Origin: Gammaproteobacteria bacterium
GTDB lineage: Bacteria > Pseudomonadota > Gammaproteobacteria > Steroidobacterales > Steroidobacteraceae
Assembly: GCA_043738315.1 (NCBI GenBank)
Contig: JAYUGT010000287.1
Coordinates: forward strand, 1 to 53,317
DNA length: 53,317 nt
Reading direction: 5' to 3'
Text below: a report on this DNA, generated by a model with database tools, continued
The DNA's letters: not shown here

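Follow-up and report, generated by a model that had tools for sequence, protein, structure and literature searches.

Abundance and form of the word

The window (53,317 bp, 64.5% G+C, a complete MAG contig in which neither tRNAs nor Rfam families were found) holds 51 GTTAG and 63 CTAAC, the abundance claimed in a sequence-only reading, whose figures for the extended forms we also reproduce (TGTTAG 83, TTGTTAG 43, TTTGTTAG 25); order-2 Markov expectations for the 5-, 6-, 7- and 8-mer are 24, 4.5, 0.8 and 0.2. Of the comparison words used in that reading, the isomer CTTAG/CTAAG is as rare as stated (3 copies), and GTTAC/GTAAC is indeed far rarer than GTTAG, at 37 copies rather than about 30. A maximal-order Markov model masks most of the YGTTAG signal, the sub-words being enriched in their own right, and our controls were therefore lower-order models, codon shuffling and relatives. 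Gene calling gave 53 genes, which take up 93% of the window and whose frames match gene calls on syntenic public contigs. When synonymous codons were permuted per gene, which preserves the already inflated TTA count, the excess persisted: 33.1 ± 4.4 GTTAG were expected (z = 18), with 10.5 TGTTAG and 1.3 TTTGTTAG. The most telling of the abundance controls is the biological one, since GC-matched relatives (257 kb) have TGTTAG at 1.2 and CGTTAG at 0.8 per 53 kb, where the window has 83 and 28. GTTAG is under-represented (0–0.5 per kb) in the GC-rich loci among 80 other-species ilvI loci listed.

The outward-decaying flanks described from the sequence were recovered: base −1 is T in 83 copies and C in 28, with A or G almost absent, base +1 is C or G in 102/114, base +2 is T or C in 92/114 with G strongly avoided, and bases −2 and −3 lean to T. 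AGTTAG and GGTTAG stand at control level by comparison with relatives, which makes the unit a strict hexamer, YGTTAG, within a weak decamer, TTYGTTAGSY. Comparison of one-mismatch words with relatives gave no enrichment, with the sole exception of TGTCAG at 3.6-fold (38 TGTCAG/CTGACA in the window, e.g., at 30689 and 39062, vs. 10.6 in GC-matched relatives). Some of these are orthologous to TGTTAG in the close relatives L081 and L082; such copies may be sites in decay or in the making, or else a variant with weaker function.

Two other words drew attention. CTTAG/CTAAG falls below the codon-preserving shuffle (3 vs. 19–20), a deficit due mostly to the GTTAG context, in which almost every TTA or CTA codon sits. 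GGTTAC/GTAACC, often as CGGTTAC, occurs 21 times (5.4 by maximal-order Markov, 12.5 by codon shuffle, 8.4 in relatives), but at only 2.5 times control it is far weaker than YGTTAG and was rejected as a second word; its excess may partly reflect Gly-Tyr coding.

Coding context, spacing and direction

Sixty copies lie in the context xxG-TTA-G (Leu), taking up 60 of the window's 71 TTA codons, 33 in xCT-AAC (Ala/Pro/Thr-Asn, with the motif on the non-coding strand), 7 in CTA-ACA and 3 in GTT-AGx; three more supply a TAG stop, and about 8 are intergenic. The places that the protein sequence permits are used sparingly, 103 of 696 (15%), the xCT-AAC class more fully (33 of 88). YGTTAG is written at the DNA level: the preferences at −1, +1 and +2 are equal in coding-strand, non-coding-strand and intergenic copies despite their differing codon positions, so that a translation-level explanation is disfavoured, if not refuted. 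The proposal that the word is maintained in DNA rather than protein gains from the IlvI alignment as well, in which motif-free relatives have ATG-CTC-GGC and the clade ATG-TTA-GGT, three synonymous changes toward the consensus; elsewhere in it the amino acid itself is altered, Thr/Ala to Asn, creating CCT-AAC.

Gaps between copies average 465 bp with a CV of 0.52, vs. 0.99 ± 0.09 for random placement, and none of 20,000 random-placement simulations reached so low a value. Against expectations of 21.7 gaps shorter than 100 bp and 39 shorter than 200 bp, there are two and nine; the longest gap measures 1558 bp (P = 0.006), and the distribution has a gamma shape of 3.8. The sequence-only reading was right that spacing is even with few short gaps, but its term 'over-dispersed' is wrong for what is a regular series. 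Drawing the same number of sites randomly among synonymous opportunities gives a CV of 1.0; coding opportunity is therefore not the source of the regularity. Forward genes, reverse genes and intergenic DNA all have 2.1 copies per kb, with no trend along the length of genes.

The sequence of orientations is random along the window, with a modest lean to the coding strand (65:40) that matches the expectation from tolerable frames. Each orientation taken alone has the CV expected for random thinning, and regularity is a property of the pooled set, in which 6 gaps are shorter than 150 bp vs. 18.9 if the orientations were placed independently (P = 0.003). One copy, whichever way it points, is therefore enough to 'satisfy' the sequence around it, and over distances of a few hundred bp whatever reads YGTTAG ignores direction. 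The sign of the GC skew does not change within the window. We found no replication polarity of the motif there or in pooled independent segments, where 86 of 160 copies are on the G-rich strand (CI 0.46–0.62), a balance that disfavours a polar signal of the Chi/KOPS kind.

Distribution and turnover among relatives

In protein searches the contig falls with uncultured Gammaproteobacteria close to Steroidobacteraceae/Nevskiales. No exact match to the window's IlvI was found, and a contig scan for ilvI yielded relatives at ≤76% identity among the matches listed, which served as negative controls; close relatives were reached by homologous-protein search and then through the contigs encoding those proteins.

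Motif density and retention of window sites in contigs of relatives
Contig	Protein identity	GTTAG per kb	Nucleotide identity	Window sites kept	Any 5-mer kept
L081	IlvI 96%	1.9	91%	36/42	66%
L082	IlvI 96%	2.3	89%	39/43	56%
L083	IlvI 89%	2.2			
L089	peptidase C11 88%	2.7	87%	27/29	53%
L092	peptidase C11 83%	2.0			
L090/L091	peptidase C11 70%	3.4–3.5	76% (L090)	17/21 (L090)	26% (L090)
L093 (58.6% G+C)	peptidase C11 65%	4.0			
L085	IlvI 82%	about 1.1, mostly other positions			
L084, L087, L088	IlvI 79–80%	0			

The YGTTAG form makes up 94–98% of GTTAG copies in seven clade contigs, and all 13 copies in L093 have it too. Motif-bearing genomes are GCA_031382085.1, GCA_031363155.1 and the MAG that includes ERZ25039524 contig_10513 (661 kb); GCA_964584625.1 and the L087 lineage are motif-free sisters. 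The word is not local to the window's contig, since L089 carries it at 2.6 per kb across 10 kb past the window's end. Artefact, or engineering, is excluded by the differing projects and assemblers behind the clade contigs and their intact reading frames; L083, a MEGAHIT contig, is equally dense in its accessory half, so that clade-resident mobile DNA is tagged too. The IS4-family transposase encoded there has no homologue above 69% amino-acid identity in PLSDB, and its HHH_3 protein, considered as a ComEA-like candidate, was unconfirmed by NCBIfam. The short contig L085 could represent accumulation that is still early or that arose independently.

No comparable private word was found in other family-level relatives, and over-represented words in other families, considered as 'dialects', turned out to be unrelated: CCTTGAG in L007 is a common coding word, and the AATTAGGACA-like decamers of L071 form clusters that resemble a regulator's repeated operator sites and have nothing to do with YGTTAG. 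In L018 (Hydrogenedentota MAG, 12.7 kb), TTATGT/ACATAA-type words exceed the pooled control about 20-fold (15 vs. 0.75).

YGTTAG sites are maintained one by one. Against matched 5-mers centred on Leu codons with conserved flanking amino acids, retention was 24/24 vs. 60% (p = 1e–5) and 24/26 vs. 68% (p = 0.008), and divergence is 0.04–0.06 within the 5-bp core vs. 0.09–0.25 around it. Divergence plotted against distance from the site gave neither conservation of the immediate flanks nor a recombination signature, only the core being conserved; in a three-genome mosaic analysis recombination is not separable from branch lengths. Thirty of 41 three-way-aligned sites are shared and 11 variable, several of the latter by a double change from CTG to TTA on short branches. 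L090 is richer in sites than the window, whose set is largely a subset of that in L090. The longest gap arose because the window lost a site common to L081, L082 and L083: at about 39062 it has TTGTCAGCG where these keep TTGTTAG. The next site, at 40241, is intergenic and found in the window only, and is possibly compensatory.

Genes that vary among the relatives carry the motif at normal density, and a conserved trio of genes just past the window's left end, present in all clade members, is a possible defence or signalling module in its protease and TIR arrangement.

Coordinates of features in the window and compared contigs
Contig	Position	Feature	Remark
Window	38688–40240	longest gap	5' part of ilvI, ilvI-ilvH intergenic, ilvH
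Window	46.0–49.3 kb	lower-GC, variable segment	58.8% GC
Window	47949–49232	MFS transporter gene	missing in L081 and L082
Window	46.9–47.9 kb	YgaP-like and HSP20 genes	missing in L082
Window	42636–43571	second Usp gene	missing in L082
Window	285, 3387, 26641, 30149	GGTTAC examples	
L083 (57% G+C)	1–6000, 9000–11582	accessory region adjoining ilvIH: IS4-family transposase, PemK, HicB, PIN/PhdYeFM toxin-antitoxin, HHH_3 protein	YGTTAG about 2.5 per kb, 2 copies within the transposase gene
L085 (GCA_033579075.1)		3.7 kb contig	4 GTTAG, positions mostly unlike the main clade's
L071 (Beijerinckiaceae MAG)	4900–4960, 7694–7730, 9708	seven AATTAGGACA-like decamers	tight clusters, ~22 bp apart
L089	11929–15341	trio: peptidase C11 (clostripain-like), trypsin-like protease, TIR_2-TPR protein (650 aa)	
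L090	9300–12819	same trio	
L092	3644–7141	same trio	

Possible functions and known systems

YGTTAG is a clade-wide, duplex-level, orientation-independent signal. Its single copies are kept far more often than the synonymous background predicts, and its density saturates at about one per 250–500 bp. By analogy, the known behaviour that fits best may be that of an uptake or recombination tag, a reading we favour tentatively: if each fragment needed one copy or more, in either orientation, and gained nothing from extra ones, both short and long gaps would be scarce. A 6-bp core, however, discriminates poorly against AT-rich DNA, and the all-or-none specificity appears enzyme-like. That specificity is compatible with a methylation-linked mark, possibly with a transformation role in addition as for HIP1, which we think somewhat unlikely, and a nucleoid-structuring site seems improbable. 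A neutral repair ratchet is at odds with the facts that near-cognate words are not depleted and that opportunities are filled only to 15%, and it has no means of spacing sites.

The statement that no described element has this sequence held up in a full-text literature search, which found no paper treating GTTAG/CTAAC, YGTTAG, TGTTAG, CTAACA or the octamers as a bacterial genomic signal; for new uptake sequences it found only work on Neisseriaceae, Pasteurellaceae and HIP1. Like YGTTAG, USS have even spacing and no polarity (PMC1939737). DUS spacing tracks conversion-tract length, and recent DUS are often several bases off the homologous sequence (PMC2397512). HIP1 sites owe their conservation to selection (PMC5861425), and YGTTAG sites are likewise retained beyond background; for HIP1, an enhancement of natural transformation has been reported (10.1101/2024.09.10.611283), as has a correlation of its abundance with genes related to the type IV secretion system/DNA uptake (10.64898/2026.06.24.733823). 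YGTTAG is a hyper-abundant selected genomic word that lies outside DUS, USS and HIP1 by both sequence and taxon.
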